NCBI GenBank assembly: GCA_965645245.1
Contig: OZ287085.1
Location: 682,001 to 746,000 of the forward strand
Origin: Massalongia carnosa
Lineage: Eukaryota
DNA: 64,000 bases
Direction: 5' to 3'
The position numbers and the translations under genes were made by a program. Positions 4,456-63,582 of the stretch are shown one piece after another; positions within the stretch are counted from its first letter, which is position 1; the number at the start of each line of letters is the position of its first letter. The notes beneath the pieces were generated by a model. The model had not been told where the DNA came from and searched no databases. It was given only the letters and a program-made list of their open reading frames with translations.

Positions 4456-4529
4456 TAACTAGATGATGACTGTGGGGCAGGTGAGGGAGAAGTAGGGTCA
4501 GATTTTTGAACAACTTCCCCCCCTTCGGG

Positions 4530-5772: not shown

Positions 5773-5918
5773 TAGTGTCGCGCTATGCCGTTGGGTCGGG
5801 TTCGGGTGTCGGACACGCGACCTGTCCGAATTACCCGATCGGATAAGCGTTATGTCTCACAACGTCCGATTTGATCGTGTCGGGAGCCCGAGCCGAGTTT
5901 AAACCCAACCGGGCGGTT
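5773..5918. repeat. Degenerate GGGTCGGGTT/AACCC-rich MITE-like remnant
   Basis: Shares the GGGTCGGGTT and AACCC motifs of the MITEs at 10506 and 27564; ends not resolved. Confidence 0.4.
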
Positions 5919-5919
5919 A

Positions 5920-6500
5920 TCTTATTCGTATTCTCAAGTAGAAAACGAAGTCGCGGAGCGAATAATCAGAATCATTATACACATGATTAGATGCAGTATT
6001 ATTGTCGAAGACATTTCAGACTTCTTCTGATCAGAAGTAATTCTTGTCATGATTCACATCATGAATGTCAGATCAATCAACGTTTTACCAAATAAAATCT
6101 CGTATGAGATCATCGAGAATAAGTTACCGAAGTTGAATTATTTAAGAATTCTCGAATTCACAATTTATGCGGTGCTTCACGAAGAAGAGCGAAAAGGAAT
6201 AAACGATAAGACTACTAAATTTCTCCGTGGATTCAGAAAAGAATCCTAAGTGAATATGACGAAAGCATCATTTATCGGGTCTTCATAAAAATAGGCTACA
6301 AGATTATCAGAATCATAAACTTACGAATTTATAATGACTTCACATTTAAAAATTAAATCGATCTATACACGTACGATTTTATAATGATTCAAAACAAGAA
6401 AGATAAAATATGTGAAATCTGTCTTACTTCTTCAGAATATGAATTAAAATTGAATTTTGATATAAGTGAAATTCTGAATCGTGAACGTGATAGACTCAGA
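5920..6500 (+). pseudogene. Copia integrase C-terminal relic
   Basis: EN(E)VAERIIRII near 5941; NVLPNKISYEIIENKLPKLNYLRIL(E)FTIYAVLHEEERKG resembles the Copia post-core/SH3 region. Confidence 0.7.
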
Positions 6501-6666
6501 AATCACGCTCATGTCGCATAAGTTTTGTGTCTCTTATTAATAAAGGCATTAAGTGAATCAGAACAAAAACTTATATTGACAAATAAAAACGAAGAAGACT
6601 TATTCATACTTCTGATCAAAGAATATAAAAAAAGCACCATAAATAAACGATTACAATATGTATATA

Positions 6667-20793: not shown

Positions 20794-23700
20794 TATCTGA
20801 CTCTACCATTCTTGGGTACGCTCCGAATACCAATAGAGTGGGCACTAGTCCATTCGGACCGACCGAGTTATTGATTGCCTTGAATGCCATCTGCAGGGCC
20901 AGCGCAGGGTCAATCCCAGGAATTTCAGAAGTGATTATATTATATACCCGATATAGTGGTCATGGTACCGTTCAACCATTCCAATAGAATGATGAGCTAC
21001 CACTGGAACATTCTTTATGACAATTCCCATATTTGCCACGTATTGCTTAAATTCCCGAGATGTAAACTGCTTCCCTGCATCGGAGGAAATGATATCTGGT
21101 GGGCCGTGATAGGTATCGATCCAGCAGGTCCGCAGCTGGTCCCAAACATGCCGGGCAGAGATATCTTTTAACCATCGTCCCGCCTGGAACCGAGTAGCTT
21201 CATCGACCAGATGTAGAACCGTTTTGCCTTGTATGTAAAGAATGTCCACTATGACGTTGAAATTGAAGTTGATATCGTCTTCTTTAATGTTGAAGTTGAA
21301 TCGGCCAGGCGATTTTCCATACTTTTGGCAATGCTCGCAATATTTGGTCAAATGCTGCAATGCCTGCATTTCTGCCTCATGTCCGGATAGTTCTAGAATC
21401 TGATGTAGGCGGCGTACTGATGGATGTCCGAAGCGGTGGTGCAGGCGACGTAATTCTATTTCGGTCAGAAAGCAAGGATTCTCGCTGAGAGACTCGGTGA
21501 TGACCGAGTAAGCAGATGTACGCCATAGAAGAAATGCGTGACCGTACCGCCGAATGACTGGATGAGAACGACCGGTGCCGGGCCCGATTTGGACAACTTG
21601 GTTAATAGTATTGTTGAAAAATGCTCCCAACCGGTCCATGTCTGCCAGACATAGTAGGAACGGTGTATTAACTTTCACTATGTAGAATATAATTGGTCCC
21701 ATGGGTGTCTCCAATAGTACCGTCCCTATGGATGCGGTGCTTCCAATTCCAAATATAAAACTGGCTGCCCCGGCAGTGCTGACGTAAAATTTATCGAGTC
21801 GTCAATTTTCTGTAGAGCTTTTAACTGGCCGATGCCACCCGTGGATCTGGTGGCGGCCCCCGAGTCTATCAATAGTCCCTTGAATTCTGATTCATCGTAT
21901 CGGGAATTAGATGACGTGCTGAACGTGTAGGGAATCGGAGCGATAGAAGTGATCGTTTTATCTGTCGATGTAATTCGGTATTTAAAAGAATTGTCGGCTA
22001 GTAAGTTGGTCGTCTGTTCGGACTCGGGAATTTTGATTCGACCAATGGAGGTGAGGAATAGCTCATTCTCCGCTGCCTCGGACGCAGGCATGGGGTCATA
22101 GATAGCATCAATTGATATATTGTCGAAAAAGTAGGCTACATTATTTTCATCTTTATCGCTCTTACAGTGAGCGATGTATTGCTGAAGATACTAATCGTAT
22201 CCCGAACGATTCTTGTATTGAGGAAAGCGATTAGCGAATCGCTTTTTGGAATCATCCCGTTCTTGCTGAGTATGATTACTAGACAAACATCCTTCTTTTC
22301 CGCATACGAAGCATTTCTTCCGACGCGAGAACCCTCGGGATGACGGGACTCCGAACTGTCGGGATGATATAGGTCCGCCTGAGAGGTAGGTTTAGAACCC
22401 ATCTCTGCCTCGACCGGGTCTTCGGTACCGTCGGTCGGTGAAGTATGCCTCCGCCTCGTCATCCCCCTCGTTGTAAGATTGCACGTATCCACTCGTTGAA
22501 GTAGATTTGTGCACCGCCTCGTAATTGATAATTGATGCGTATAGATTATTGACCAGACCGGAGGTGTCTGAGACAGGATTGGTGAGGCCGGTGGCGAGCG
22601 AGGGATGCCCGCGGCAGGCCCGTATGATGTTTTCTCGGAGGTGCACTGGTCTATTGTATGCGGGATCGATGCCTCGTTGAATAGTGTCGATCTCGGTACA
22701 CATCTTCCGGAGGCATTCGGTAATATTCAAGGTGGGGTTTGCCGCAATTGTATCGTTTAGGCTGACTGTTTGCCATTTAGCCAAATTCAAACGTTGCCAT
22801 TCGGGACCTTCAAAAAAGAGTTGAATCTTCCGACAGAATTCTTCAAATGAGGCAGCATCCCCCCGATTTGCATAGTAGTGATTTTGAGCCTGTCTAGAAA
22901 GCATGATCGAGGCTCCCTGAATGTAGGCCTCTGGCGGCAATCCGACCAGTCTGCATTTGTCATAGTAGATGGTTAGTTTAAAAGAGAAATTGTCTCCGGT
23001 ACCGCTAAATTTGTGTTCGGACTTGTAGATTTTGGCTAACTGAGTCAATCTTTGGAATACTGAGTTCCTGAGGTCGGATTGGAATAGTGAGACTGATGGC
23101 CAGGAGTCGGATTGGGATATTGACTTGCTCCAGGTGTTGGTCCTGGGGCCCATGTAGGTGCCGGTGGCTCGTAATAGGCAGTCTCGTAAGGTTTCGGCAT
23201 TTGCCGCTGCGGGGCGTATGAAGGCTCGGGATGCCGAGAGACGTTGTAGGGTGTCGGTCGATCTTGATAGATCGGATTTCCAGTTGCAGGTGGTAAACGA
23301 GGCTGTCTGATTGGTCGAGCCATAGGTTGGTTTAGCCGTATCGGGGCAGCAGGGGAAAAATGAAGCTGCCCTATTGGTTGACCCAGGGGTTGATTTTCGG
23401 TAGGTGGGAGTGGCGGTGCCCCTGCATGTGCTATCGATAGACTTGGAGGTGCAGATGCAGAGGCATCACTAGTTCTACCTAGCAGATGGTTTTTACGACT
23501 CTGGATATACCTTGACAAACGATAATAGTTCTTCTCCACGTACAAAATTCTCTCTATGTCCCATTTCTATCGTAGTCATCTTGGACAACTTTTATCATGA
23601 TTTTGGCTCTACTTCCCTTCTTGCCAAAGTTATCGATCCAAATTCCGCGGGGTAGGCAACAATCCTTGATGAGAGCCCAGGTAACGGTGTCTAGTAACTT

Positions 23701-37442: not shown

Positions 37443-38347
37443 ACACCAAAGACCACCTATCGAAACACAAGTACCGCAACTTTTGATACTCTAAAACTTT
37501 TACAGTCAATTGAACATTTCTTTCTCAGTCATTTGAGCTCCTCCAGAGCAAAAACGGACTCAGATTGAGTGTAGGAGAGCTCTAGCAAAGCTCCAGCAGA
37601 GATTTTCTGCTGGTCGCACGCGACAGACGTGATAAAGCGCGCTCAAGAAGTTATAAAAAACAACAAATACCAACAATATCACCAAAAATCGCTCTTTTTT
37701 CTCACTTTCTTCTGTTCTGTTGTCGCATTACCCTCAATTATTACAACAAGAATTATCTACAAAAAATATCTACTGTCGCGGTACTGTACAACAACTGTCG
37801 CGACGACCAACTTTTTTGAAGTTCATTTCTCATTTAAGGTTACGGGAACTTCCGCAAACTCAAATATTCACAGTATATTTCACGTATAATTTCTGCATAA
37901 ACCATTTTAGGCTTTATCGATCTCCATTGAACGGCCGGTCAACAGATCACTGAAAAGAAGGGGAAAAACGTCTGGAATAGGATTATACCAAAGATCCTAT
38001 TTCAGATTAATCAGAATAGGAAGTCTCTTATTATCTTACCTTGCCTTAGATCTATTTTTATCGCAAAAAAGCAAAAAAAAAACTTTCATTATTTTCAACT
38101 ATTGTAGTGTCTGGTAAAGGGTTAAATAAGATTTACTGCCTAAGCGAGGAACGGTCTATTTTAACCCGATTAGGATTTATTTGACGAGTTATTGTCATAT
38201 AAATAGGGATAGGAAAGCAAGAGTCGTTAGACCTGTAAATTGGTGTAAATTTCTATTCTGATTAGTACGTCCGGGGAACATCAGAATAAATTATTTGGTG
38301 GTGATAAAAGGGATATTGAAAAGGCATATCGATTTATTTATTAAATC

Positions 38348-39921
38348 ATGTTCAATCCGGTACTCCCTAGGACTCGACGAAATATATCGAGAGCCTCCCC
38401 GGGAACACCCCTTAGCACTCCTCAAAACCCTCCCCAAATGGAATCTCCGGGGCTCTCGTCAGTAGGACTTATAGAAAAATCGCCTGTACTTGACGAGCCT
38501 ATGGATCAATCACATGAATATTCGTCCGCCCCGACTACGCCGACCCCAAAAGCAACCAAATTCCCATCTGGACAATTTACTACCAATCTACCCATGCCAT
38601 CGTTAAATTCTAATATAGAATTAAGCCCCCCCATCAAACGTAACAAACGAAAAACATTCGACGAACGAGTAGAGGAAAGCCAAGAAGCAATCAATCGAGC
38701 ACAATCGATTGGATTACTCAAAACGGCTAAAACCGCGTTATTGAAGTCATTTGTCTTAGATCAAAATCCAGAAACAGTAATAGTCATTGATAATTTCAAT
38801 TCCTTATTGACAAAAAATCAATTAATATCAAAACAACACTAGACATGATGAATTGGAAATTGGACAAGGTAATTGATCAGACTAGTAATCGAACCTCAGA
38901 AACAACGCGAAAATCGACTCGGGTTCAACAAGTCAATATGACTGAAAATCCAAATAAAGTCGTCAACACGAACGCACGAAAGGAAACCGCCGGGGTTACG
39001 AGTACAAAGGTCAATAACACGCCTCCATCCTGGAGTCAAATGCTTGGAAAAGCAACTGCGAATTCCGAAAATTGGACCACTGTTTCCAGATCGAAAAATT
39101 CGAGTCAAACCTCGAACAAACTCGAAAAAACCGACGAATTAAATGCAATCAAACTCAGACGACTGATAATTACACCAAAAATTCAAATCGGCGATATCGA
39201 CTCATTGAAACTTCGAGATCAAATCAACGCGCAATTCAGCAACGCGAAGTTAGATATCGTAATCAACACGGTCGAAAAATCGAAAACCGGTCAGAATATC
39301 GTTCTCACTACTAGTTCGAAAAACACTGCCGCAGAATTGTTGGAAAACAAATCTATATGGGAACATATGTTCGATGCACAAAGAATTCGAAAAGACGAAT
39401 CCTGGTTTAAAGTTATCGCACATGGAGTAAATATTGCAACGTTTGATCAAAATATGCAATTTTTGCAAAATGAAATCCAGAAATTCAACCTTAACATGGA
39501 ATTGTGCGATTTACCCAGATGGCTAGCGCGAGATCGCGAAAATAAAGTCAATTCTTCGGTCGTTTTGACTTTTAACGATCGAAATCAGGCCTTAAACGCG
39601 TTAAAAGGCGTAAATATCGCGGGAAAACACTGTGACACGGAAATATTTACTTCCGTTCGTCCGAATACACAATGTATTAATTGTCAAAAATTCGGACACA
39701 AGCATTATCAGTGTCGAAACAAATCAAAATGCAATATTTGTGCACAAAATCATGAAACACGTAATCATGAATGCATAACATGCAAATCGAAAACTGCGTC
39801 TGCACACGTTGTTGTGAAATGTGCAAACTGCAATAAAAATCATCAATCAAATGATAAACATTGTGAAATGTTTACTGCATTAAATCCACGAAAATCGGCT
39901 GACGAATTATCCGCCTTATAA
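38348..39921 (+). pseudogene. LINE-B ORF1 (gag-like, three Cys/His knuckles) with one frameshift near 38815
   Basis: ORFs 38348-38842 and 38845-39921; FKVIAHGV, PRWL, CINCQKFGH, CNICAQNH, CANCNKNH. Confidence 0.9.
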
Positions 39922-42900
39922 TGGCAGGACAGCATTCGTTGGCAAATATAGAAAATACTCACAATGTCAAATTTATTCAACACAACTGTGGAAGGTCAAC
40001 GAATACAATGATTTCGTGTTTGGAATATGCTTTATCAAATCAAATTGATATTGTTTTGTTTCAGGAACCATGGACACGAGATCAAAAAAAAATATCACAT
40101 CCGTCATTTACATGCATTATGCCGAAAACAGCGACTTATCGCTCGAGAGTAGCTATATTTGTCACAAAATGCAATCCCAAACTGCAATGCACGCCTAGAA
40201 CGGATCTGGTTGACGATTCCGATATGCAAATTATTGAAATTACAATTGATGAAATTCGAAAAGTGCAGATTTTCAATATTTTTAACGAAAAAAGTCAAAA
40301 TGATCGAGAAACATACACGATCGATCGACTTTTAATCAAATATCAACCTACATCAACTAATCAATTCATCATATGTGGAGATTTAATTGCACATCATAAC
40401 TGGTGGAATTCGAAAATTCAACACGCAATTCGATCAGAAAATTTAGTCAAATGGTTGAAAATAAACAAATGTAGTTTGATAAACACATCTGATTTATGCA
40501 CATTCTACGCCCATTCTGGAAGTTCATCATCTGTTATTGATTTAACATTTGCAAATTCCAAAATCGAAAATGCAATTACAAACTGGGCAATCGATGAAAA
40601 CGCAGTCACAGGTTCAGATCATGAAGTTATCCGATTTGAACTAATCGCATCTTTCAAGAATTTGACGTCACATGCAACCGCATTATCGAATAAATACAAT
40701 TGTAATAAAGCCGATTGGAATAAATTCGGGAAGTTTCTAGACGAAAATTCAATCAACTACGAATCAAAAGTACAAAGTTTATTGAATAATCATCAATTCG
40801 ACGAATCAGCGATACATTTGCAAAAAATTATCAAAAACGCGGCTGAAATGTTTATTCCGAAAACAAAAATATGTGCAAAATCGAAAAATTGGTGGTCGCA
40901 AGATTTAACCGAACTTCGAAAAATCATGTGCAGGCATCGTCGAGAATGGAATAATTATCCGTCCGATTTTAGTCATCGGACGATTAAACATAGTCGAATT
41001 GAGTATTTTCATGCAATTCGAAAAGCAAAACAACAAACCTGGTTGACTTTTCGAGAAAATGCAGCGAATAAAGACGTGTTTACCGCGTATAAATATACTA
41101 AACCGCGCATATTCGAAAAAATACCGCCGATTCTACATGAAAATAAGCTTAATGTTCAGTTTGATGACAAATGCGATGCGTTTGTGTCAGCAATGTACAC
41201 AAAAAACCCATTTATAGACGATAATGTCGAAGATTTACAAAATCAAGACAGCGAAAATGATGATAATTGGCCAGATTTGACCGAAAACGAGCTGCAAAAT
41301 GCGATTAATTTATTTAATCCGAAGAAAGCATATGGACCTGATTCAATCAATTTTACAATTGTTCAAAAATCGTTTCAATCGTTGAAAAACGTGTTTTTCA
41401 TGATTTATTCGAAATTCATTCAAATCGGTTATCACCCGTTTTGCTGGCGGACAGGACTCGGTGCAGTTCTGAACAAACCTAATAAATCAGACTATTCGCT
41501 ACCAAAATCATATCGAATTATCACATTACTAAATTGTCTTGGTAAAATTGCTGAGAAAATCGTTGCAAATCGACTAGCCTACTTCGGCGAAAATTTGAAT
41601 TTACTAGATATCGAACAGATGGGCGGACGCAAAAATCATTCTGCAATTGACGCAGTAATGAACGTCGTTCATGATATCGAAATTGCGAATCGAAATAAAA
41701 GCGTTTTATCCTGTTTATTACTCGATGTCAAAGGCGCATTTGACTTTGTCTCGATTAATCAACTGCTAAATGTCATGAAAAAGCTGAAATTATCCCGCAT
41801 AATAATTCAATGGGTCAAGCATTTCATGACAAAACGATCGATCAATTTGATATTCGATGAAAACAAAAGCAAAACATATTATGTCGAATCAGGAATTCCA
41901 CAAGGTTCACCAATCTCGCCTATTCTATTTCTGATTTACATCACATGTTTTACCAGTTAAACTTCGATTATTAATGAAAAATCAAAAATACGCAATTCGA
42001 TTATTGAAGATTGCCGAAAATAACCCTATTTGTCAAAGAATTCCAAATACATATTCGATAAAATTCGAAAACATCGGTTTTGACACTAGTTTATGGAACA
42101 ACAAATATGCCGAATGGAACGAAGACGAAAAACAAACAAATAAACGACATCCTAGTCAGCTCATTCGCGTTCTTCATTCCGTCTCCGACATAGTTCACAA
42201 AACTGATGAGTTTGAACAATCAAATCATTCTATTAAACCTTGGAAATCGCCGTGCAAAATCGAATTTCAAATCGAAAATACAAAGGAATCTGCTAAATCA
42301 AGTTATTATTCGACCTTATCCAAAGTTCAATCAATGAACTCCGATAAATCCCGAGTTTTACTTTATACGGATGGATCAAAAATCGAATTTGCAACGTCTG
42401 CAGTCACATTTGCGCCAATTATGAGGAATTGGAGTAGTATTATCAATAATTTTGATCGATTTATCGAAAAAGATTGTCTGATCAAGTATCATACGATTTC
42501 GAAAAGCTGGAAATTAAGCAAACAGTCAAGCATTAAAAATGCTGAACTGCATGCAATTTTACAAGCAATGAAATGGGTCTATAAATTGTCTAATACTAAT
42601 ATTTTATCGAACTTGGAAAAAACGATTTGGATTTTTTCTGATAGTATAAACGCGATAAACGAAATTAATAACTCGACAAATCAGATTTTCGCAAGACAAA
42701 TTCGAAAGCTCGCAAAACGCTTATTTGAAAGCAATTATCAGGTGATTTTGCAATGGGTTCCGAGTCATTCGAATATTACCGAAAACGAAATTGCAGACAA
42801 AATAGCAAAAACGGGCCATAATCAAATCCTAGTCGAGTCCTCGGCTATAACATTTGATTATGTAAAAGATCAAATAAATCAAAATATGCTAACCACATGG

Positions 42901-43353
42901 ACGAATCAATGGCAACAATGCAAATCAAAAGGCAAATACTACGAGAAATTCGAAATGAAACCTGGCATATCGAGATTTTATTATTTATCAAACAACTGTT
43001 CCAAATTGATATTTGCTACTATTATGCAATTAAAATTCGGACACGGCTATTTTCGATCATATTTACATCGATTGAAAGATTATAATTCGTCAAAATGCTC
43101 AAATCGATGCAATCAACGACAAACGCCAGAACACTTGTTATTGAATTGCATTCACTATTTCGATGAAATTCAAAACATGAAACAAACCATCGATACTACG
43201 ATCAACTTGAATATGTTGTTTAATACAAAAATCGGAAATGACATTTTGATTAAATTCATTGTCAATAACAAAATCGCGACTAGAAAATGGATACTAGGTC
43301 AGCTTGATGACGATATTTTCGAAACTGGAGGTTGGGGAGAGATCGAACAGTAA
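39921..43353 (+). pseudogene. LINE-B ORF2 (APE, partial RT, RNase H, CCHC) lacking the FIDD catalytic motif
   Basis: ORFs 39921-41960 and 41974-43353; the segment present in copy 1 at ~30170-30747 is absent. Confidence 0.9.
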
Positions 43354-45420: not shown

Positions 45421-48400
45421 TTTTTTATTTATTCATTAAGTGTATTCAACCTAAGGTTATTACACTAAACTATTTTAGGATATGTTTCTATATTACAAAT
45501 AAATCAACCCTTTATAACCCATCTATGTATCGTCAATTTTTCCCCATTTTTACTCCGTGTTAGTAACAACCTATAGTAATCGAAAAATATCGATTTTACA
45601 ATTTATCTTTGTAAGTTCGTAACTGTTTCAGCATAAATCGTTTCTGATTTTACTGTTCGATCTCTCCCCAACCTCCAGTTTCGAAAATATCGTCATCAAG
45701 CTGACCTAGTATCCATTTTCTAGTCGCGATTTTGTTATTGACAATGAATTTAATCAAAATGTCATTTCCGATTTTTGTATTAAACAACATATTCAAGTTG
45801 ATCGTAGTATCGATGGTTTGTTTCATGTTTTGAATTTCATCGAAATAGTGAATGCAATTCAATAACAAGTGTTCTGGCGTTTGTCGTTGATTGCATCGAT
45901 TTGAGCATTTTGACGAATTATAATCTTTCAATCGATGTAAATATGATCGAAAATAGCCGTGTCCGAATTTTAATTGCATAATAGTAGCAAATATCAATTT
46001 GGAACAGTTGTTTGATAAATAATAAAATCTCGATATGCCAGGTTTCATTTCGAATATCTCGTAGTATTTGCCTTTTGATTTGCATCGTTGCCATTGATTC
46101 GTCCATGTGGTTAGCATATTTTGATTTATTTGATCTTTTACATAATCAAATGTTATAGCCGAGGACTCGACTAGGATTTGATTATGGCCCGTCTTTGCTA
46201 TTTTGTCTGCAATTTCGTTTTCGGTAATATTCGAATGACTCGGAACCCATTGCAAAATCACCTGAAAATTGCTTTCAAATAAGCGTTTTGCGAGCTTTCG
46301 AATTTGTCTTGCGAAAATATGATTTTTCAAGTTCTGAATTTCGTTTATCGCGTTTATACTATCAGAAAAAATCCAAATCGTTTTTGCCAAGTTCGATAAA
46401 ATATTAGTATTTGACAATTTATAGACCCATTTCATTGCTTGTAAAATTGCATGCAGTTCAGCATTTTTAATGCTTGACTGTTTGCTTAATTTCCAGCTTT
46501 TCGAAATCGTATAATACTTGATCAGACAATCTTTTTCGATAAATCGATCAAAATTATTGATAATACTACTCCAATTCCTCATAATTGGCGCAAATGTGAC
46601 TGCAGACGTTGCAAATTCGATTTTTGATCCATCCGTATAAAGTAAAACTCTGGATTTATCGGAGTTCATTGATTGAATTTTGGATAAGGTCGAATAATAA
46701 CTTGATTTAGCAGATTCCTTTGTATTTTCGATTTGAAATTCGATTTTGCACGGCGATTTCCAAGGTTTAATAAAATGATTTCATTGTTCAAACTCATCAG
46801 TTTTGTGAACTATGTCGGAAAGGGAATAAAGAACGAGAATGAGCTGACTAGGATGTCGTTTATTTGTTTGTTTTTCGTCTTCGTTCCATTCGGCATATTT
46901 GTTGTTCCATAAACTAGTGTCAAAACCGATGTTTTCGAATTTTATCGAATATGTATTTGGAATTCTTTGACAAATAGGGTTATTTTCGGCAATCTTCAAT
47001 AATCGAATTGCGTATTTTTGATTTTTCATTAATAATCGAAGTTTAACTGGTAAAACATGTGATGTAAATCAGAAATAGAATAGGCGAGATTGGTGAACCT
47101 TGTGGAATTCCTGATTCGACATAATATGTTTTGCTTTTGTTTTCATCGAATATCAAATTGATCGATCGTTTTGTCATGAAATGCTTGACCCATTGAATTA
47201 TTATGCGAGATAATTTCAGGTTTTTCATGACATTTAGCAGTTGATTAATCGAGACAAAGTCAAATGCGCCTTTGACATCGAGTAATAAACAGGATAAAAC
47301 GCTTTTATTTCGATTCGCAATTTCGATATCATGAACGACGTTCATTACTGCGTCAATTGCAGAATGATTTTTGCGTCCGCCCATCTGATCGATATCTAGT
47401 AAATTCGAATTTTCGGCGAAGTAGGCTAGTCGATTTGCAACGGTTTTCTCAGCAATTTTACCAAGACAATTTAGTAATGTGATAATTCGATATGAGTTTG
47501 GTAGCGAATAGTCTGATTTATTAGGTTTTTTCAGAAGTGCACCGAGTCCTGTCCGCCAGCATAACGGGTGATAACCGATTCGAATGAATTTCGAATAAAT
47601 CATGAAAAACACGTTTTTCAACGATTGAAACGATTTTTGAACAATTGTAAAATTGATTGCATCAGGTCCACATGCTTTCTTCGGATTAAATAAATTAATC
47701 GCATTTTGCAGCTCGTTTTCGGTCAAATCTGGCCAATTATCATCATTTTCGCTGTCTTGATTTGGTAAATCTTCGACATTATCGTCTATAAATGGGTTTT
47801 TTGTGTACATTGCTGACACAAACGCATCGCACTTGTCATCAAACTGAACATTAAGCTTATTTTCATGTAGAATCGGCGGTATTTTCTCGAATATGCGCGG
47901 TTTAGTATATTTATACGCGGTAAACACGTCTTTATTCGCTGCATTTTCTAGAAAAGTCAACCAGGTTTGTTGTTTTGCTTTTCGAATTGCATGAAAATAC
48001 TCGATTCGACTATGTTTAAACGTCCGATTACTAAAATCGGACGGATAATTCTTCCATTCTCGACGATGCCTGCACATGATTTTTCGAAGTTCGGTTAAAT
48101 CTTGCGATCACCAATTTTTCGATTTTGCACATATTTTTGTTTTCGGAATAAACATTTCAGCCGCGTTATTGATAATTTTTTGCAAATGTATCGCTGATTC
48201 GTCGAATTGATGATTATTCAATAAACTTTGAACTTTTGATTCGTAGTTGATTGAATTTTCGTCTAGAAACTTCGCGAATTTATTCCAATCGGCTTTATTA
48301 CAATTGTATTTATTCGATAATGCGGTTGCATGTGACGTCAAATTCTTGAAAGATGCGATTAGTTCAAATCGGATAAATTCATGATCTGAACCTGTGACTG

Positions 48401-51400
48401 CGTTTTCATCGATTGCCCAGTTTGTAATTGCATTTTCGATTTTGGAATTTGCAAATGTTAAATCAATAACAGATGATGAACTTCCAGAATGGGCGTAGAA
48501 TGTGCATAAATCAGGTGTGTTTATCAAACTACATTTGTTTATTTTCAACCATTTGACTAAATTTTCTGATCGAATTGCATGTTGAATTTTCGAATTCCAC
48601 CAGTTATGATGTGCATTGAAATCTCCACATATGATGAATTGATTAGTTGATGTAGGTTGATATTTGATTAAAAGTCGATCGATCGTGTATGTTTCCTGAT
48701 CATTTTGACTTTTTTCGTTATAAATATTGAAAATCTGCACTTTTCGAACTTCATCAATTGTAATTTCAATAATTTGCATATCGGAATCGTCAATAAGATC
48801 CGTTCTAGGCGTGCATTGCAGTTTGGGATTGCATTTTGTGACAAATATAGCTACTCTCGAGCGATAAGTTGCTATTTTCGGCATAATGCATGTAAATGAC
48901 GGATGTGATATTGTTTTTTGATCTCGTGTCCATGGTTCCTGAAAAAAAAACAATATCAATTTGATTTGATAAAGCATATTCCAAACACGAAATCATTGCA
49001 TTCGTTGACCTTCCACAGTTGTGTTGAATAAATTTGACATTGTGAGTATTTTCTATATTTGCCAACGAATGCTGTCCTGCCATTATAAGGCGGATAATTC
49101 GTCAGCCGATTTTCGTGGATTTAATGCAGTAAACATTTCACAATGTTTATCATTTGATTGATGATTTTTATTGCAGTTTGCACATTTCACAACAACGTGT
49201 GCAGACGCAGTTTTCGATTTGCATGTTATGCATTCATGATTACGTGTTTCATGATTTTGTGCACAAATATTGCATTTTGATTTGTTTCGACACTGATAAT
49301 GCTTGTGTCCGAATTTTTGACAATTAATACATTGTGTATTCGGACGAACGGAAGTAAATATTTCCGTGTCACAGTGTTTTCCCGCGATATTTACGCCTTT
49401 TAACGCGTTTAAGGCCTGATTTCGATCGTTAAAAGTCAAAACGACCGAAGAATTGACTTTATTTTCGCGATCTCGCGCTAGCCATCTGGGTAAATCGCAC
49501 AATTCCATGTTAAGGTTGAATTTCTGGATTTCATTTTGCAAAAATTGCATATTTTGATCAAACGTTGCAATATTTACTCCATGTACGATCACTTTAAACC
49601 AGGATTCGTCTTTTCGAATTCTTTGTGCATCGAACATATGTTCCCATATAGATTTGTTTTCCAACAATTCTGCGGCAGTGTTTTTCGAACTAGTAGTGAG
49701 AACGATATTCTGACCGGTTTTCGATTTTTCGACCGTGTTGATTACGATATCTAACTTCGCGTTGCTGAATTGCGCGTTGATTTGATCTCGAAGTTTCAAT
49801 GAGTCGATATCGCCGATTTGAATTTTTGGTGTAATTATCAGTCGTCTGAGTTTGATTGCATTTAATTCGTCGGTTTTTTCGAGTTTGTTCGAGGTTTGAC
49901 TCGAATTTTTCGATCTGGAAACAGTGGTCCAATTTTCGGAATTCGCAGTTGCTTTTCCAAGCATTTGACTCCAGGATAGAGGCGTGTTATTGACCTTTGT
50001 ACTCGTAACCCCGGCGGTTTCCTTTCGTGCGTTCGTGTTGACGACTTATTTGGATTTTCAGTCATATTGACTTGTTGAACCCGAGTCGATTTTCGCGTTG
50101 TTTCTAAGGTTCGATTACTAGTCTGATCAATTACCTTGTCCAATTTCCAATTCATCATGTCTAGTGTTGTTTTGATATTAATTGATTTTTTTGTCAATAA
50201 GGAATTGAAATTATCAATGACTATTGCTGTTTCTGGATTTTGATCTAAGACAAATGACTTCAATAACGCGGTTTTAGCCGTTTTGAGTAATCCAATCGAT
50301 TGTGCTCGATTGATTGCTTCTTGGCTTTCCTCTACTCGTTCGTCGAATGTTTTTCGTTTGTTACGTTTGATGGGGGGGCTTAATTCTATATTAGAATTTA
50401 ACGATGGCATGGGTAGATTGGTAGTAAATTGTCCAGATGGGAATTTGGTTGCTTTTGGGGTCGGCGTAGTCGGGGCGGACGAATATTCATGTGATTGATC
50501 CATAGGCTCGTCAAGTACAGGCGATTTTTCTATAAGTCCTACTGACGAGAGCCCCGGAGATTCCATTTGGGGAGGGTTTTGAGGAGTGCTAAGGGGTGTT
50601 CCCGGGGAGGCTCTCGATATATTTCGTCGAGTCCTAGGGAGTACCGGATTGAACATGATTTAATAAATAAATCGATATGCCTTTTCAATATCCCTTTTAT
50701 CACCACCAAATAATTTATTCTGATGTTCCCCGGACGTACTAATCAGAATAGAAATTTACACCAATTTACAGGTCTAACGACTCTTGCTTTCCTATCCCTA
50801 TTTATATGACAATAACTCGTCAAATAAATCCTAATCGGGTTAAAATAGACCGTTCCTCGCTTAGGCAGTAAATCTTATTTAACCCTTTACCAGACACTAC
50901 AATAGTTGAAAATAATGAAAGTTTTTTTTTTGCTTTTTTGCGATAAAAATAGATCTAAGGCAAGGTAAGATAATAAGAGACTTCCTATTCTGATTAATCT
51001 GAAATAGGATCTTTGGTATAATCCTATTCCAGACGTTTTTCCCCTTCTTTTCAGTGATCTGTTGACCGGCCGTTCAATGGAGATCGATAAAGCCTAAAAT
51101 GGTTTATGCAGAAATTATACGTGAAATATACTGTGAATATTTGAGCTTGCGGAAGTTCCCGTAACCTTAAATGAGAAATGAACTTCAAAAAAGTTGGTCG
51201 TCGCGACAGTTGTTGTACAGTACCGCGACAGGAGATATTTTTTGTAGATAATTCTTGTAGTAATAATTGAGGGTAATGCGACAACAGAACAGAAGAAAGT
51301 GAGAAAAAAGAGCGATTTTTGGTGATTTGTTGGTATTTGTTGTTTTTTATAACTTCTTGAGCGCGCTTTATCACGTCTGTCGCGTGCGACCAGCAGAAAA

Positions 51401-51560: not shown

Positions 51561-53369
51561 AATAACAAGTATTCTAGCGTTTGTCGAGGATTGCATCGAT
51601 TGGTGCATTTTTCAATGCACATCATAGCTGGTGGAATTCGAAGATTTAAAATGCAATTCGATCAGAAAATCTAGTCAAATAGTTAAAATTAAACATATGT
51701 AGTTTGATAAATACGCCTGATCTATATACATTTTTTGCTCATTCAGGAAAATCTTCATCTATTATTGATTTAACATTTGCAAATTCTAAAATCGAAAACG
51801 CAATTACAAATAGGTCAATCGATGAAAACGCAGTCACGGGTTCAGATCATGAAGTTATTATATTTGAACTTAGCGCGTCTTTCAAGAACTTGAAGTCACA
51901 TGCAACCGCATTATCGAATAAATACAACTGCAATAAAGCCGATTGGGATAAATTCGCGAAGTTTCTAGACGAAAATGCAATAAACTACGAGTCCCAAATA
52001 CAAAGTCTATTGAACAATTATCAATTTGATGAATCAGCGCCATATTTGTAAAACGTTATCAAAAACGCGGCTGAAATGTTTATTTCGAATACAAAAATAT
52101 GCGCAAAATCGAAAAATTGGTGGTCGCAAGATTTAACCGGACTTCGAAAAATCATGTGTAGACATCGTCGAGAATGGAAGAATAATCCGTCCTATTTTAG
52201 TCATCAAACATTTAGACATAGTCGAATCGAGTACTTTCATGCAATTCGAAAAGCTAAACAGCAAACTTGGTTGGCTTTACTCGAAAACGCAGCGAATAAA
52301 GACGTATTTACAGCTTATAAATACACTAAACCGCGCATGTTCGAAAAAAAACCACCTATTCAATATGAAAATAAGTTAAATTTTCAATTCGATCACAAAT
52401 GCGATGCGTTTGTGTTAGTTATGTACACAAAAAACCCGTTCACGGATAATAATATTGAAGATTTAACGAATCAAGACAACGAAAATTACAACAATTGGCC
52501 GAATTTAACCGAAAATGAATTGCAAAATGCGATTAGTTTGTTTAATCCAAAGAAATCATGTGGACCTGATACAATCAATATCACAATAATTCAAAAATCG
52601 TTTCAACTATTGAAAAACGTGTTTTATACTATTTATTCTAAATTTATACAAATCGGTTATCACCCTTTATGTTGGCGAACAGGACTCGGTGCAGTTTTAA
52701 AAAAACCTAATTAACCAGACTACTCGCAGCCAAAATCATATCGAATTATTACATTACTGAATTGTCTTGTAAAATTGCGGAGAAAATAGTTGCTAATCGA
52801 CTAGCCTACCTCGGCGAAAATTCGAGCTTGTTAGATACCGAACAAATAGGCGGACGCAAAAATCATTCTGCAATCGATGCGGTAATGAACGTCGTTCCTG
52901 ATATCGAAATCGCAAACGGAAACAAAAACATTTTATCATGTCTATAACTCGATTTCAAAGGAGCATCTGACTTTGTTTCGATTAATCAATTGCTAAATGT
53001 CATGAAAAAGATGCATTTATCTCGCATAGTTATTCAATTGGTCAAGCATTTTATGACAAAACGATCGATCAATTTGATATTCGATAAACATAAAAGCCAA
53101 ACGTACTATATCGAATCTGGAATTCCACAAGGTTTACCTATTTCGCCAATTCTACACCCGTTTGCAAAATGGTATGCCGAACTTTGAACCCCGAAACTGC
53201 GCGGTAAAAAAAAAATAAGCGACAGAATTGGACCACACTCCAGAATTTGGTGCAGTAGCTAATGGCACTCCTCCCCTTTAAACCGCCTTTTGCAGTCTGT
53301 AGGATAAAAGATATGTAGTGTTTTCATGTAAATATTTATTCTTGCTACCTCGTAGTTTCAAAAGCAAAC

Positions 53370-54402
53370 ATGGGACGATTATTCAGCATCATCAAACGCC
53401 AGGCTATAAAGTTCAAAATGGAATCGGGTGAAGATGATAACACGATCATAACTGCTACTGGTTTCAGCATCATACAACTACGTAAGATGAGACGTAATTG
53501 GGAACGGTTCTATGAGGTTGCAAAACCTCAGCTTGCTGCTGGCCGGCGCAAGAAACTGAATCAACAACAAATCGATCAACTACTCGTGTATCTGGATCCG
53601 AGACCTACCTCTTATTTGGATGAGATGTGCTGGTTTTTGTATGATGAATTCGACGTCTTGGTGAGCGAGTCTACGGTTTCTCGAACTCTGAAGCAGATGA
53701 CCTGGAATCGAAAGATGGCCATTCGTATAGCACAACAACGCAACCAATCTTTGCGTGATGGGTGGATGAATAGCGGGAGGATGGAGGGCTGATCAGTTGA
53801 TTTTTCTGGACGAAAGCGCTGCATGCGAGCGTACTGGTCAGTACGATTTGAAGAACTTCAGTTTCTTTGCTAATTGTTATTACTTTAGGTGATCGTCGAT
53901 ATGGATGGGCCGCACCAGGAATCAAACCGACCATGATTCAAGCGCTCAAACGTTCTAAGAGATGGAGTATATTACCAGCGTTCACCATCGACGGTTTCAT
54001 AGCTTGGGAGGTGCATCATGGCTCTATAACATCAGATATTCTGAATGAATTCGTCAGGCTCAAGGTTTACCATACTGCGCTGGAGGTAATGGTCCTCGTT
54101 CGGTTTTGATTATGGATAATGCCTCTATACATTGGAGTGAGGAATTGAGGATCATGTGTCAGGATGCAAATGTTTTGCTGGTTCATTTGCCTCCGTATTC
54201 ACCCGATTTTAATCCAATAGAGACTTCATTCTCTATTCTAAAGGCCTGGATTAAACGTCACAGCAGTTTAATTGATTCATATACAGAGGAAACTGGTGGA
54301 TTTGGGAGATTTTTAGAAGATGCACTGCAGGCTATAAGTGAAGATGTTTCACATGATGCAGGTGCATTGTTTCGACAGTCTAGTATTGAATATAACTCAT
54401 AA
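53370..54402 (+). pseudogene. DD34E transposase with a 52-nt intron (53837-53888) and two frameshifts (~53775, ~54066)
   Basis: HTH (YLDEMCWFLYDEFDVLVSESTVSRTL), LIFLDES, RRYGWA, WSILPA, IMDNASIH, LPPYSPDFNPIE; intron GTCAGT..GCTAAT..TAG restores ERT-G-DRRYGW. Confidence 0.9.
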
Positions 54403-54417
54403 AAATCAATTTCCTCA

Positions 54418-56511
54418 TCAGCTACTGTCTTCCGCATCATCCTCCTCGTCCTCCTCGTCCTCCTGATTGTCCTCCTCCTCCTCCTCTTCCCCCTCCTCCT
54501 CCTCCTCCTCCTCCTCCTCCTCCTCCTCCTCCTCCTCATCCTCGTCTAGGTCCTCCTCATTTTCCTCTCCCTCCTCCTCGTCATTCGAATCCTTTTGTGT
54601 AGTCCTAGTAGTTAACAGACGAACATTGAAGCTTGGCCGGAAATTCTTTGACAGAGATTGACCGGAGGAACGTGATTCTGATGGAGGAGGAGGAACAATT
54701 ACAGGTTCAGAATCGTGCTCGGATGATTGCTGCTTCAATTGTCTAGTAAATTTGCTGACATCGCGAGCCAAACGTATGCCGATGCCAGGTTCGATTCCCA
54801 TTTTCTCCCATTTTTCCTCATAAGCAGTACCTTTCCACTGCTGAATGGTTTGTAAATCATAGCACTTATCCTCCAGTATGTTATATGCGTGTCTAAATTA
54901 AAACTTCAATCTAGGTGTGATTTTTATATGCCATAAAATATAATCATACAAATCACCTTGCTCCACTGGACTGCTTGGAATAGGAACGGAGGTGAAGCTT
55001 AACGGTAGAGCAGTTGTTAATTCAGATAAGTTCTTCATCTTTTTATGCTTCTGCTTTACCTTCTTCTCTACTTTCTCCGATTTTTCTTGCTGAATAGGCT
55101 GTGCTGAAGGCATATTCTGATATACGGAAGGGGAAGGAAGGGGGAAATATGATGAATGATACAATGAGGCCGAGGGTTGCTGATATGGATATAAAAATAG
55201 ATAATGAGGAGGTGGATATGCTGGACCTGCAGTCATCGAATATTTTGCCGAAGGGACGGATTCCTTAACGATTGCTTTTTGCTCTTTCTTTTCGAGAGCA
55301 TCGGCCTTTCGTTTTGATGAAAAAAGAACCTCTAGTGTAGTCGGTAGAGGCATTTCATGAGTCGATTTTCCCTCCTCGATGGCTTGGGTCCAAGCATTAA
55401 TATGAGCTGCATTCAGCGGATAATGCTTTTCATTGTCAATCCTGCAATATTTGCCTTTGAATTTGCATCTCGAACTAGTGCATAACCACATGCTTTGCAA
55501 GGCCTCCTGACGTTTATCCAGATCATCTCGTAAAATTGCACGCTCTTCTCGCTGAGCCAACAGTTTATCCGGCTTTGTGGTCCTCTTTTTGCTTCTGCCG
55601 TTGCCTCCAGCGACAGTGTCAGCAAAAATGAGAGCAGCAGCAGATTCATGTCGAGAATTATTGACTGGAGCGTCATCAACAGCTGAATTGATCGTCAATG
55701 GAACGATTCCATCGCTTCTACGGGCAAAATAATAGGAACATTCTACACTCAGTCCTCTTTTGTTATCATGATTAAGCTGACGAAGAATGTCTTCTACGTT
55801 TGCCCATGTTTGATAGGCTGAATGTTTGAGCAAGGAAGAAGTATGTTTTTCATCCTTTTTAATGGCCTTCCAAACGATGGTAAAGGTAGCAGACACTCTA
55901 TGACAAGACCAGCCCTTATTATCGGCATGAGTGCTGGCTAACGCTTCCTGTTGTTTATGCAGAGAAAGAAGATTGATCCTCCGAGTTCCATCCACCGTTG
56001 CCGCCTTTACTTCGCTATCTATCTTTTCCGCTTCAAACATTGTCTTTGTCACTAGAGTAAACAAAATAGGCTCGGGCTCAGGCTCGGGTTCAGGCTCAGG
56101 CTCGGGTTCAGGCTCAGGCTCGGGTTCAGGCTCAGGCTCGGGTTCAGGCTCAGGCTCGGGTTCAGGCTCAGGCTCAGGCTCAGGTTCAGGAGCACTAGAT
56201 AACTCAGAAAGATATGGAGAAGGCGCACTATTGCGAGTCGGACGAACATTCCTTGGCTCGGGAAGGAGGAGACGAGGAGGAGGTAAAGGCGAAGCCGAAG
56301 GAGAAGATAGAGGAGATGGTGAAGGTGGACGTGATAGAAGATCAGGAATACGGGTATTTAAAACTGGTGATGATGCTCTAGGAGGATTGATTCTAAGCCT
56401 TTGTTTGGATGGAGGTGCTGAGTTCCTAGGCAATTCAGTAGTAGATGCCCGTTTTCTGGGTTGTTTGGAGGGCTGTTTTGGAGACTGTTTAGGAGGCCGT
56501 TTTCGAGGCAT
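54418..56511 (-). CDS. Transposon ORF2, unknown protein of ~697 codons with one internal TAA at 54898-54900
   Basis: ORFs 54898-56511 and 54418-54801 are in the same frame; basic/Pro-rich N-terminus, (PE)n tract, WLC-x4-C-x6-C-x6-H cluster, SAM-like segment, poly-Glu/Asp tail. Confidence 0.8.
54439..54580 (-). repeat. (GAG)n-rich microsatellite encoding the acidic tail of ORF2
   Basis: Long run of TCC/CCT triplets on the + strand. Confidence 0.9.
56069..56190 (-). repeat. Hexamer repeat with 18-bp higher-order unit, encoding ~20 Pro-Glu pairs
   Basis: (GGCTCGGGTTCAGGCTCA)n on the + strand. Confidence 0.95.
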
Positions 56512-57435
56512 GATGACTGGAATTACTACGTTGAAAGTTCATACAAACGACAATCAAAAGGATATCATTAATCGTACTATCCTATAGACTGCAAAAGGCG
56601 GGGTGAAGGGGAGGAGGGCCGTTAGCTACTGCACCAAATTCTGGTGTGTGGTCCAATTCTGTCGCTTAATTTTTTTTTTTACCGCGCAGTTTCGGGTTTC
56701 AAAGTTCGGCACACCATTTTGCAAACGGGTGTATTTCTGATTTATATTCGTTACTTAATTCCGAAAATACGAATGAAATTCAATGCTCATTCACCTAGCT
56801 TTATAGACGATGTTGCAATATATCTCGAAAAAAAAACTGCAAAACAGAATTGCAAAGAAATCGAAATTATCGTCAAAACAGCTTTTGATTGGGCCGCAAC
56901 GAATAATGTCAAATTTGATAACGACAAATCTGAGTTGATTCACTTTAAAAAGTCAAGAAATGCATCAAAAGACAAAGTGCAATTACCGAACGGGACAATA
57001 CTAGAACCGAAATATTCTGTCAAATGGTTAGGAGTCTGGTTAGACCGAAAACTAAATTACAAAAAACACGCCGAAACGCGAATTGCTTCTGCAAATCGAT
57101 CGTTTTTCGCAATTCAAAATTTAATGAAGTCTGAATGGGGACTAAAGCCAACTACATGCAGACAGCTCTATCTGTAAAGCATTATTCCTATTTCGGACTA
57201 TTGATCAGAAATCTGGTATAATGTTCAAAAGAAATATGAAAAGCTATTTCAGAATCTGCAAAATCGAATGATACGAAAGATTTTAGGCGCATTCAAAACC
57301 ACGCCTGTTCAGGCGATGGAAATTGAATCGCATATTTTACCAGCCAAGCTACGATTGTTGATGAAAAATAAAAAATACGCAATTCGATTATTGAAGATTG
57401 CCGAAAATCATCCTATTTGTCAAAGAATTCCCAGT

Positions 57436-60993: not shown

Positions 60994-63582
60994 AGCACCT
61001 ATAGCCGACACAAATCATCTATGAAACCCCTAAAATATCGGTACCCTATATTTTGATATACTGAAACTTTCCCAACTTTTTCCCCTCAATCTTCTCATTC
61101 ATTTGAGCCTACCAGAAGCTAAAACCAATAAGAATTGGGTACAGGAGAGCTCTTCCACGGCTCCTGCAGAGTTTTGCTTTCGGTCTGTCCGCCCCTTCAC
61201 CAAAAAGCGTGTCCAAAAAATCTACAAAACACAAAAACAACAACAACAACAACGTCAAAATCGCTCGATTTTCGATAATTCTTCTTTTTAATTGTCGCAT
61301 ACATCTCATCTATTATCACAAAAGTTATCTACAAAATATCATCACAGTGGCGTAACTGTACAACCTGTTCTCGAGACAACAAAACTTCTTGCACATCATA
61401 ACTGGTGGAATTCGAAAATTCAACAAGCAATTCGATCAGAAAATCTTGTCAAATGCTTGAAATTAAACAGGTGTAGTTTGATAAACACACTTGACTTATG
61501 TACATACTACGCCCATTCTGGAAGTTCTTCATCTGTTACTGATTGAACTTTTGCAAATTCTAAAATCGAAAATGCAATTTCAAATTAGTCAGTCGATGAA
61601 AACGCAGTCACAGGTTCTGATCATGAAGTAATCCGCTTTGAACTAATCGCATATTTCAAAAACTTGACGTCACATGCAACCGCATTATCGAATAAATAAA
61701 ATTGCAATAAAGCCGATTGGAATAAATTCGCGAAGTATCTAGACGAAAGTTCAACCATCTACGAATCACAAGTTCAAAGTTTATTGAATAATCATCATTT
61801 CAACGAATCAGCGATATATTTGCAAAACGTTATCAAAAACGCGGCTGAAATGTTTATTACGAAAACAAAATTTGTGCAAAATCTAAAAATTGGTGGTCGC
61901 AAGATTTAACTGAACTTCGAAAAACTATATGCAGAAATCGTCGAGAATGGAAGAATTATCCGTCCGATTTTATGTCATCGGACGTTTAAATATAGTCGAA
62001 TCGAGTATTTTCATGTAATTCGAAAAGAAAAACAACAAACATGGTTGACTTTCCTAGAAAATGCAGCAAATAAAGATGTATTTACCGCGTATAAATACAC
62101 TAAACCGCGCCTATTCGAAAAAATACCGCCGATTCTACATGAAAACAAGCTAAATGTTCAGTTTGATGACAAACGCGATGCATTTGTGTCAGCAATGTAT
62201 ACAAATAACCTTTTTATTGACGATAATGAGGAAGATTTATCAAATCAAGACAGCGAAAATGATGATAATTGGCCAGATTTGACCGAAAACGAGTTGAAAA
62301 ATGCTATTAGTTTATTTAATCCGAAGAAAGCATGTGGACCTGATGCAATCAATTTTACAATTGTTCAAAAATCGTTTCAATCGTTGAAAACGTCTTTTTC
62401 ATGATTTATTCGAAATTCATTTGAATCGGTTATCACCCGTTATGCTGGCGGACAGGACTCGGTGCAGTTCTGGAAAAACCTAATAAATCAGACTATTCGT
62501 TTCCAAAATCATATCGAATTATCACATTACTAAATTGTCTTGGTAAAATTGCTAAGAAAATCGTTGCAAATCGACTAGCCTACTTCGGCGAAAATTCGAA
62601 TTTACTCGATATCGAACAGATGGGCGGACGCAAAAATCATTCTGCAATTGACGCAGTAATGAACGTTGTTCATGATATTGAAATTGCAAATAGAAATAAA
62701 AACGTCTTATCATGTTTATTACTCGATGTCAAAGGCGCATTTGACTTTGTCTCGATTAATCAACTGATAAATGTTATGAAAAAGCTTAAATTATCTCGCA
62801 TAATAATTCAATGGGTCAAGCATTTCATGACAAAACGATCGATCAATTTGATATTTGATGAAAATTTAAGCAAAACATATATGTCGAATCAGGAATTCCA
62901 CAAGGCTCACCAATCTCACCTATTCTATTTCTGATTTTCATTCGTCACTTGTTTCTGAAAATACGAATGTAATTCAATGCACATTCTCCCAGTTTTATTG
63001 ACGATGTTGCAATATATGTCGAAAATAAAACTGCAAAACAGAATTGCAAAGAAATCGAAATCATAGTCAAAACGGCTTTTGATTGGACCGCATCGTATAA
63101 TGTCAATTTGATGACGATAAATCCGAGCTGATTCACTTCGAAAAGACAAGAAATGTATCGAAAGAGACATTGGAATTACCAAACGTGACAATACTAGAAC
63201 CGAAAAATGTAGTCAAATGGTTGTGCGTCTGGTATGACCGAAAACTAAATTTCAAAAAACACGTCGAAACGCGGATCTCTTCTGCGAATCGATTGTTTTT
63301 TGCAATTCAGAATTTGATGAAATCCGAATGGGGTCTGAAAACGACCGCATGCAGACAGCTCTATATGTCATGCATTATTCCTATTTTGGACTACGGCTCA
63401 GAAATTTGGTATAATGGTCAAAAGAAATATGAAAACTATTTCAGAACCTACAAAATCAAATGATTCGAAAGATTTTTGGAACTTTCAATTCCACACCTGT
63501 TCAGGCGATGGAAATTGAATCACATCTTTTGCCAGTCAAACTTCGATTATTAATGAAAAATCAAAAATACGCAATTCGATTA
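60994..63582 (+). mobile_element. LINE-B-related copy: divergent 5' UTR joined directly to mid-APE ORF2
   Basis: 60994-61390 loosely resembles 37443-37820; from 61391 (AHHNWW) the sequence follows ORF2 to KYAIRL. Confidence 0.8.

Follow-up and report, generated by a model that had tools for sequence, protein, structure and literature searches.

The 64,000-nucleotide (nt) stretch of Massalongia carnosa DNA analysed here, hereafter called the window (contig OZ287085.1 of assembly GCA_965645245.1, positions 682,001 to 746,000 of the forward strand), carries at its positions 53155-56731 one slightly damaged copy of a 3577 bp Tc1-like transposable element with two convergent genes, a transposase gene on the plus strand and a larger gene, open reading frame 2 (ORF2), on the minus strand. 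ORF2 is probably a true partner gene encoded by the element itself, in a Tc1 lineage with two genes; the host is a fungus, probably a lichen-associated one. An earlier annotation of the locus made from the letters alone (the sequence-only reading) had already taken ORF2 for an integral part of the transposon and not for random cargo, a view that is upheld by the 144 relatives of ORF2 and by the second lineage with the same arrangement described below. The features are given one per line by position in the window, with the insertion host last and the basis of each assignment, or the damage in it, in brackets.

53153..53154, no strand: left copy of the TA target-site duplication (read from the sequence; the empty-site joint keeps one TA).
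53155..53306, plus strand: left terminal inverted repeat, 152 nt (about 93% identity to the right repeat).
53370..53836, plus strand: transposase exon 1, with the putative helix-turn-helix (HTH) DNA-binding part and the first catalytic D (..LIFLDESAACERTG) (frameshift near 53773-53801).
53837..53888, plus strand: predicted transposase intron, 52 nt, GTCAGT...CTAAT...TTTAG (read from the sequence).
53889..54402, plus strand: transposase exon 2, with the second D, 34 residues and the E, and the stop codon TAA at 54400-54402 (1-nt deletion at ~54065).
54403..54417, no strand: 15 bp spacer between the two convergent stop codons (sequence).
54418..56511, minus strand: ORF2, 697 codons plus the stop codon TGA at 54418-54420 (144 relatives).
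54421..54606, minus strand: ORF2 residues 636-697, poly-acidic tail (translation).
54715..54972, minus strand: ORF2 residues 514-599, SSPV motif and predicted five-helix SAM/helix-hairpin-helix-like domain (predicted local distance difference test score, pLDDT, 96-98).
54898..54900, minus strand: premature TAA at ORF2 codon 538 (protein fragment P0004 reads Q).
55255..55587, minus strand: ORF2 residues 309-419, predicted long helix and Cys3-His knuckle (pLDDT 85-97).
55423-55488, minus strand: Cys3-His knuckle C344, C349, C356, H363 (conserved columns).
55717..56064, minus strand: ORF2 residues 150-265, predicted beta-grasp (PB1-like) domain (AlphaFold, pLDDT mostly >90).
56065..56511, minus strand: ORF2 residues 1-149, basic start resembling a nuclear localisation signal, Pro/Ser-rich linker and (PE)n repeat at 56068-56190.
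56578..56731, minus strand: right terminal inverted repeat, 154 nt (alignment with the left repeat).
56732..56733, no strand: right copy of the TA target-site duplication (sequence and contig joints).
52052..57177, plus strand: insertion host, the reverse-transcriptase region of a non-long-terminal-repeat (non-LTR) retrotransposon of the long interspersed nuclear element (LINE) type, split by the element (flanking frames, RVT_1).

The structural statements of the sequence-only reading are all borne out at the positions it gave, the terminal inverted repeats of ~150 bp and the TA duplication among them; the two repeats align with one 2-nt indel, in an A-run, and the 19-nt terminal word has exactly two occurrences in the window, one per element end (chance expectation 0.01). 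Logan contigs of four public runs (X1, X2, X3 and X5, the last three of which represent three separate studies) were aligned to window positions 52700-57200. Contigs of X1 (one), X2 (one) and X5 (two) contain an empty site in which 53152 is joined to 56732, a joint that skips 3579 bases, namely the 3577 bp of the element and one TA, and loose contig ends at 53154 run on into the sequence found after 56733, so that both borders, the TA duplication and the element's past mobility are directly visible. The insertion struck a LINE and left a duplicated TA. The LINE frames that flank it read ..GIPQGLPISPIL and ..SFIDDVAIY.., Pfam RVT_1 matches 56626-57174, and LINE copies without the interruption are present in the public runs. 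No further copies of the element were seen within the window. Differences between the aligned contigs and the window element are mostly C>T and G>A; repeat-induced point mutation (RIP) of this copy was considered and set aside, its indices not being RIP-like (TpA/ApT 0.66, (CpA+TpG)/(ApC+GpT) 1.44). Within the left repeat the outer-end word CCGTTTGCA has a similar form, CCTTTTGCA, near the inner end, which hints at two putative transposase-binding sites per repeat, the arrangement of Tc1 elements of the inverted repeat-direct repeat (IR-DR) type.

The transposase gene starts 63 nt inward of the left repeat's inner end and encodes a protein of ~326 aa that matches Pfam DDE_3 with 60.1 bits (cut-off 28.6, E=2.8e-16); its matches to HTH_32 (25.6 bits, cut-off 33.7) and HTH_33 (22.7 bits, cut-off 25) are both below threshold. 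By hand count on the translation 34 residues separate the D of LIMDNASIH from the E of FNPIE, in agreement with the DD34E assignment made earlier. The predicted splice of the GT..AG intron connects ERTG with DRRYGW, and a relative from the second lineage, L003, has an intron in the same position. The sequence-only reading had counted two frameshifts in this gene, and two true ones are indeed present, near 53773-53801 and at ~54065; the intron had escaped it. An extra T stands behind 54065 in contigs of all four runs, and other copies, in several runs, have an added A or T behind 53773/53774 or one nucleotide less at 53801; the breaks are private to the studied copy or its close kin. Judged by the TA duplication, the repeats and its DDE_3 core of the DD34E kind, this enzyme is a regular member of the Tc1 family.

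ORF2 begins with an ATG at 56511, 66 nt inward of the right repeat's inner end, and its stop codon at 54418-54420 faces that of the transposase at 54400-54402, exactly the 15 bp apart that had been read from the letters. The one premature stop that had been noticed in it is real: P0004, a 98%-identical protein fragment encoded on another contig, has Q at this position, so the stop is a private CAA>TAA change, and of the GT..AG pairs tried as an intron that would remove it none is a multiple of three in length or leaves the frame intact, which makes it a true point mutation. The length of the (PE)n repeat differs among copies; an X3 contig skips 90 nt there (joint 56075->56166). A Pfam scan of ORF2 returned low-complexity noise only, and neither ORF2 nor any of its 144 relatives matches the Fanzor/TnpB-type OrfB_Zn_ribbon or related Pfam models; the sole metal motif of ORF2 is the single Cys3-His.

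The 144 relatives come from a full phmmer/HMMER scan of 1.84 billion representative proteins with ORF2 residues 150-600 (a 451-residue query), at E<=1e-3; 44 of them remain at <=1e-10 and four at <=1e-30, and nine long ones (438-806 aa) align over query residues 2-447. A 34-member family alignment has a common layout of basic N-terminus (motifs MP..K, RKR(R)SST and PRLRLNPP), globular domain, Cys3-His cluster of the pattern W-x-C-x4-C-x6-9-C-x5-8-H (columns C195 and C207 invariant; C200, H214 and W225 at least 90% conserved), Pro/Tyr-rich linker, SSP[VI] and a C-terminal domain ending ..IQxWK..W..LGIxPGIGxxLA.., often with an acidic tail; the C-terminal part, from SSPV through the SAM/helix-hairpin-helix-like domain, is the family's most conserved stretch. 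The ORF2 of the window has the N-terminal motifs RKRxSTT and RLRINPP in common with its full-length relatives. RKR(R)SST, PRLRLNPP and SSP[VI] are kept within otherwise disordered regions (ORF2 residues 1-50 correspond to window 56362-56511) and may be docking or phosphorylation sites. The 32 long relatives contain no Pfam family except one stray DUF7924, and in a scan of all 144 at E<=1 no Pfam family is common to more than three. A word-based protein search with ORF2 gave no match and one with alignment A1 only five proteins; one Joint Genome Institute (JGI) record of the family is labelled "hypothetical protein", and the sources name no member. Look-alikes of ORF2 in the protein atlas are fungal clusters (Ascomycota, Basidiomycota), with scores that serve as leads only. 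ORF2 is thus a real gene, from a conserved fungal protein family that has no Pfam model.

JGI metagenome contigs were scanned with an alignment of the ORF2 C-terminal domain, which gave 80 loci, and tblastn with the window proteins finds that domain in 78 of them. At least 700 bp of sequence lies downstream in 70 of the 78, and 65 of these 70 have a convergent transposase homologue (31-57% identity per piece) that begins 303-450 bp past the ORF2 match; at two loci it lies at ~1.7 kb owing to insertions, and the five loci without it are truncated, interrupted or rearranged copies. Several related loci carry insertions of 1.4-1.9 kb. The related loci form 47 clusters at 97% DNA identity, and when dereplicated at this level 40 of the 43 clusters with room downstream have the transposase. 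Among 56 loci with the 5' part of the transposase, 42 had enough flank for a survey of inverted repeats; repeats enclose both genes in 30 of the 42, 26 of the pairs being 182-201 nt long. The related elements are mostly 3.4-3.8 kb, with termini that read TA followed by TCGTTGTAT.

One of these relatives, L003, has repeats that are 100% identical and a transposase that is open across the intron; its ORF2 has 602 codons with a single stop at a conserved Trp that is still Trp in L001, both of its genes start 11-15 nt inside the repeats, and the spacer between its convergent stops is 195 bp. The DNA of the window element and that of L003 align over only 192 nt (73%), 48 nt and 37 nt, and the two are collinear by tblastx. 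Since this second, diverged lineage keeps the same tail-to-tail pair inside terminal inverted repeats, ORF2 is ancestral to the element lineage and not random cargo. Two decayed copies, L029 and L034 (elements at ~4300-7800), differ in composition from L003, with G+C of 0.39-0.43 against 0.50, a higher (CpA+TpG)/(ApC+GpT) of 1.64-1.70 and a low TpA/ApT, and their base changes look closer to CpG deamination than to classical RIP. Scans of prokaryote genome contigs and viral contigs for a third lineage gave no relative. Relatives of ORF2 and of the transposase lie on contigs of matching length, 356 kb to 2.8 Mb, in four cases (P0012/P0188, P0026/P0163, P0285/P0176 and P0289/P0187), at best on one and the same contig, which does not imply adjacency. 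We note that a second lineage of the ORF2 family (~29-31% identity; P0021/P0280 and the P0026 cluster) shares megabase-scale European Nucleotide Archive (ENA) contigs with close copies of the window ORF2, as with P0280 (573 aa) and P0005, both on one 1,893,471-bp contig; a single genome may accordingly harbour more than one lineage of two-gene elements.

An AlphaFold model of ORF2 built with the 144-sequence alignment has a mean pLDDT of 78, with three domains above 90 (the single sequence gave a useless 40). Residues 150-265 are modelled as a beta-beta-alpha-beta-beta-alpha-beta fold, residues 309-419 as a long helix and two small hairpins around the Cys3-His cluster followed by a helix, and residues 514-599 as a bundle of five to six helices with pLDDT 96-98. 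The best structural (VIA) matches of the predicted beta-grasp domain are PB1 domains (2npt_A, Z 6.3, rmsd (root-mean-square deviation) 3.7 over 90 aligned residues; 4y5o_B and 1q1o, both 6.1; NBR1 and p62, 5.1), and the C-terminal domain resembles SAM domains (tankyrase 5jti_A, Z 6.2, rmsd 2.5, 60 aligned, 17% identity; SARM1 5.8; Eph, CNK2 and PHC3 4.8-5.6) as well as the N-terminal domains of a RAD51 paralogue, RAD51C and Rad51 (4.9-5.4) and NusA (5.2), all of which lie below the Z of ~8 under which matches are common between unrelated models. These beta-grasp and SAM/helix-hairpin-helix (HhH) matches of the models are readings of fold class, not of family membership. The conserved stretch LGIxPGIGxxLA falls within the SAM-like helical bundle; helix-hairpin-helix DNA binders have the hairpin consensus h-x-x-h-x-G-h-G-x-x-x-A, and the ORF2 stretch looks like their G-h-G hairpin. 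The globular domain, Cys3-His cluster and SAM-like segment picked out in the sequence-only reading appear to hold at the level of predicted fold, by alignment, AlphaFold and VIA.

What such a protein would do for the element can be outlined tentatively. The two near-identical terminal repeats would each supply a promoter and leader, so that transposase and ORF2 would be made together, and the basic N-terminus would bring ORF2 into the nucleus. There the Cys3-His knuckle would bind zinc and the SAM/helix-hairpin-helix-like C-terminal domain, with its G-I-G hairpin motif, would touch DNA or chromatin; the PB1-like beta-grasp domain would be a protein-protein module, and two domains of interaction type might let ORF2 bridge or multimerise. 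ORF2 would then be a trans-acting helper in the element's own life cycle, in the assembly or targeting of the complex or in protection from silencing, and we infer that it is not a nuclease or recombinase. Any one helper mechanism for ORF2 is distinctly less certain than its place as a partner gene. It is conceivable that the elements are a distinct, widespread fungal Tc1 branch working as a two-component system, with ORF2 as a cofactor that polymerises on DNA or chromatin; in such a system the cofactor might, equally tentatively, assemble or target the transposition complex or shield copies from host genome defence, and its architecture (PB1-like beta-grasp, Cys3-His knuckle, SAM/HhH-like domain) would possibly be one seen in no described transposon protein.

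Several results weigh against a functional partner gene or against the folds assigned to it. All 78 loci with a C-terminal match but one, L078, belong to a single DNA-level family (at least 80% identity, single linkage), so the two-gene linkage is found in two independent lineages, not dozens; L078 (3476-3730) lies outside that family, on a contig that stops 158 bp after the ORF2 match. None of the 80 loci has a fully open ORF2, the best stretches being 372-388 aa. The ratio of nonsynonymous to synonymous substitution rates (dN/dS) among 31-39 related copies was 0.54-0.56 for ORF2 and 0.35-0.39 for the transposase in the true frame and 0.33-0.76 in five control frames, so that the true frame is not separated from the control frames for either gene; this uninformative outcome probably reflects decay after insertion. 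The distant full-length relatives of ORF2, known as proteins alone, might be host genes. As to the folds, all the VIA scores are in the range just mentioned as common between unrelated models, and Foldseek with the ORF2 model against PDB and BFVD gave nothing at E<=1e-3, its best rows being weak beta-grasp domains at E>=0.014. The SAM Pfam model has no match in ORF2 or, at E<=1, in its 144 relatives, PB1 and HhH models have none in the 144 at the same limit, and SAM and HhH models have none in 18 short C-terminal relatives even at E<=10. PDB profile searches for a known fold of ORF2 likewise gave nothing significant.

The public runs also contain copies of the element from which the core of ORF2 is deleted. 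A joint of 54852->56054, a 1201-bp deletion with an identical 11-nt filler, occurs in contigs of X2, X3 and X5, and further joints are 54611->56240 (X1, X2) and 54684->56264 (X2). In each case the ORF2 core is gone and the two ends of ORF2 remain, as do the repeats and the transposase. Because both ends are kept, these copies are derivatives of the two-gene form and not its ORF2-free ancestor; because a junction is shared across runs, at least one deletion form has been copied or inherited widely; and because core-deleted, transposase-bearing derivatives have spread, ORF2 is not required in cis. In each of the four runs contigs cover the ORF2 core less deeply than the transposase part, although such depth cannot rank parts of a gene. 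Other copies lacking ORF2, which the sequence-only reading had named as evidence that would tell against it, therefore do occur in three studies as far as the core is concerned, but with both ends of the gene still in place.

The deletion derivatives fit equally well with ORF2 as dispensable baggage, which counts against a partner gene, and they are the first of the observations that speak for ORF2 being a host gene captured once by an ancestral Tc1 element and passive cargo ever since. Passive cargo would also explain why ORF2 is broken in all copies of the 80 related loci, why it has no domain known from transposition proteins, and why its constraint within the family is not distinct from that of control frames, a test that failed for the transposase too and so says nothing either way. 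Passive cargo should decay, yet between lineages whose DNA does not align the proteins resemble one another from their very start through to the tail, and they do so across 144 clusters, and the place, orientation and repeat-adjoining start of ORF2 are kept in both lineages. Many relatives are moreover short fragments on several megabase-scale contigs, as is expected for a multi-copy element gene. We therefore regard a captured passenger as an unlikely origin of the arrangement, though it is the strongest of the alternatives.

A role of ORF2 in limiting its own element is less probable again. ORF2 could be a repressor of the transposase, or convergent transcription could feed RNA silencing, either of which would keep copy number low; the stop codons 15 bp apart, with transcripts that probably overlap, would suit this, as would the ORF2-deleted derivatives with an intact-looking transposase part in three studies, as if loss of a repressor were tolerated or favoured. 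The 195 bp stop spacer of the second lineage, however, means that the tight overlap is not conserved, and the predicted fold shows no transposase-binding or repressor module. That an unrelated mobile element or gene landed in a one-gene Tc1 copy and brought ORF2 along as part of a chimera is very improbable. Nested insertions are common (the element itself in a LINE, the 1.4-1.9-kb insertions of several related loci), but no second repeat pair or duplication surrounds ORF2, and of the 43 non-redundant related copies 40 show the same two-gene unit, with both genes lying between the repeats.

The window as a whole is rich in retroelements, at 1-3288, 38345-43353, 45650-50659 (minus strand), 52052-57177 and 61910-62934, and at 16964-23566 (minus strand). 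Several of the non-LTR copies bear Exo_endo_phos_2, RVT_1 and RNase_H, a copia-like piece has rve and gag_pre-integrs, and all of them are split into many frames. The studied copy is itself dead, nested among other dead transposons, and as a broken copy in such a nest the locus is of modest practical value.

Tc1/mariner is the standard example of a transposon with no need of any protein beyond its own transposase. A partner gene retained over such deep divergence would imply that some fungal members of this superfamily rely on, or benefit from, an additional protein. In genome annotation the ORF2 family turns up piecemeal under the label "hypothetical proteins", which probably makes the gene counts of repeat-rich fungal genomes too high, and its three confidently predicted domains are handles for experiments on zinc binding, DNA binding and self-association.

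The element was compared with described systems as far as the accessible portions of the papers cited here cover them. Canonical Tc1-family elements (DD34E; Tc1 and Minos groups) encode one protein in 1.3-2.4 kb (PMC7325037); they share with the window element the terminal inverted repeats, the TA duplication, the DD34E core and the cut-and-paste footprint, and their N-terminal HTH part has a candidate counterpart here, whereas the window element is 3.6 kb long and bears, convergent with the transposase gene, a larger additional gene from an unrelated family, so that it is not a single-gene element. Dici1 and Dici2 of the yeast Diutina catenulata are nearer in form, being fungal IS630-Tc1-mariner elements of ~4 kb with a TA duplication, DD34E and more than one coding sequence, three in all, which their authors call unusual for the superfamily (PMC13469147). 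Their additional genes encode an orphan protein of 143-146 aa and the decayed remnant of a transposase, their transposases have 473-477 aa (432-478 aa in the Dici clade) compared with ~326 aa here, and no 700-aa protein with beta-grasp, Cys3-His and SAM-like parts is described in the accessible text of that report (PMC13469147); by gene content and transposase length, as described there, identity with Dici was set aside.

Bao and Jurka (2013, PMC3627910) described Mariner/Tc1 elements with Fanzor1, endonuclease or methyltransferase genes, which resemble the present one in the TA duplication and in an added protein gene beside the transposase. The extra proteins there are TnpB-like (D..TS..C4 zinc ribbon..RD), GIY-YIG or EcoRII-like nucleases, or methyltransferases, and a Fanzor identity of ORF2 was set aside as it has none of the motifs or Pfam domains given in the accessible part of that paper. 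Sagan Mariner/Tc1 elements have a long insertion between transposase D and E (PMC3164196), and this identity was also rejected, the spacing here being 34 residues. The TBE and Tec elements of ciliates, likewise of this superfamily, have three ORFs, which include a DD34E transposase and a zinc-finger partner (PMC7325037). They differ from the window element in that number of ORFs, in their telomere-bearing or ~700-bp repeats, in their restriction to ciliate germline genomes and, for Tec, in a site-specific recombinase. A survey of fungal cut-and-paste transposons lists the accessory domains OTU, helicase and C48 protease and, in its accessible portion, mentions no such Tc1/Mariner partner (PMC5751038); a term search of a paper on Paracoccidioides Tc1/mariner elements and of a survey of DDE transposons gave no match for a second ORF, and a preprint on Peltigerales transposons names only Fot1 and Sagan. 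No description of an ORF2-type partner protein was found in the open-access literature, which was the scope of the search and does not include Repbase, Dfam and subscription journals.

The element represents a branch of the fungal Tc1 elements that has two genes, and a partner protein family undescribed in the open-access papers searched. PIF/Harbinger is a eukaryotic two-gene DDE transposon with a 3-bp duplication in which an element-encoded Myb/SANT-like nuclear DNA-binding partner is required, and VANDAL elements encode an anti-silencing protein of their own. The former is the best functional analogy for ORF2, although it belongs to another superfamily and ORF2 has no Myb/SANT-like domain. 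If these elements do work as a two-component system, ORF2 might, by analogy, do for Tc1 what the Myb-like partner does for Harbinger or the anti-silencing protein for VANDAL.

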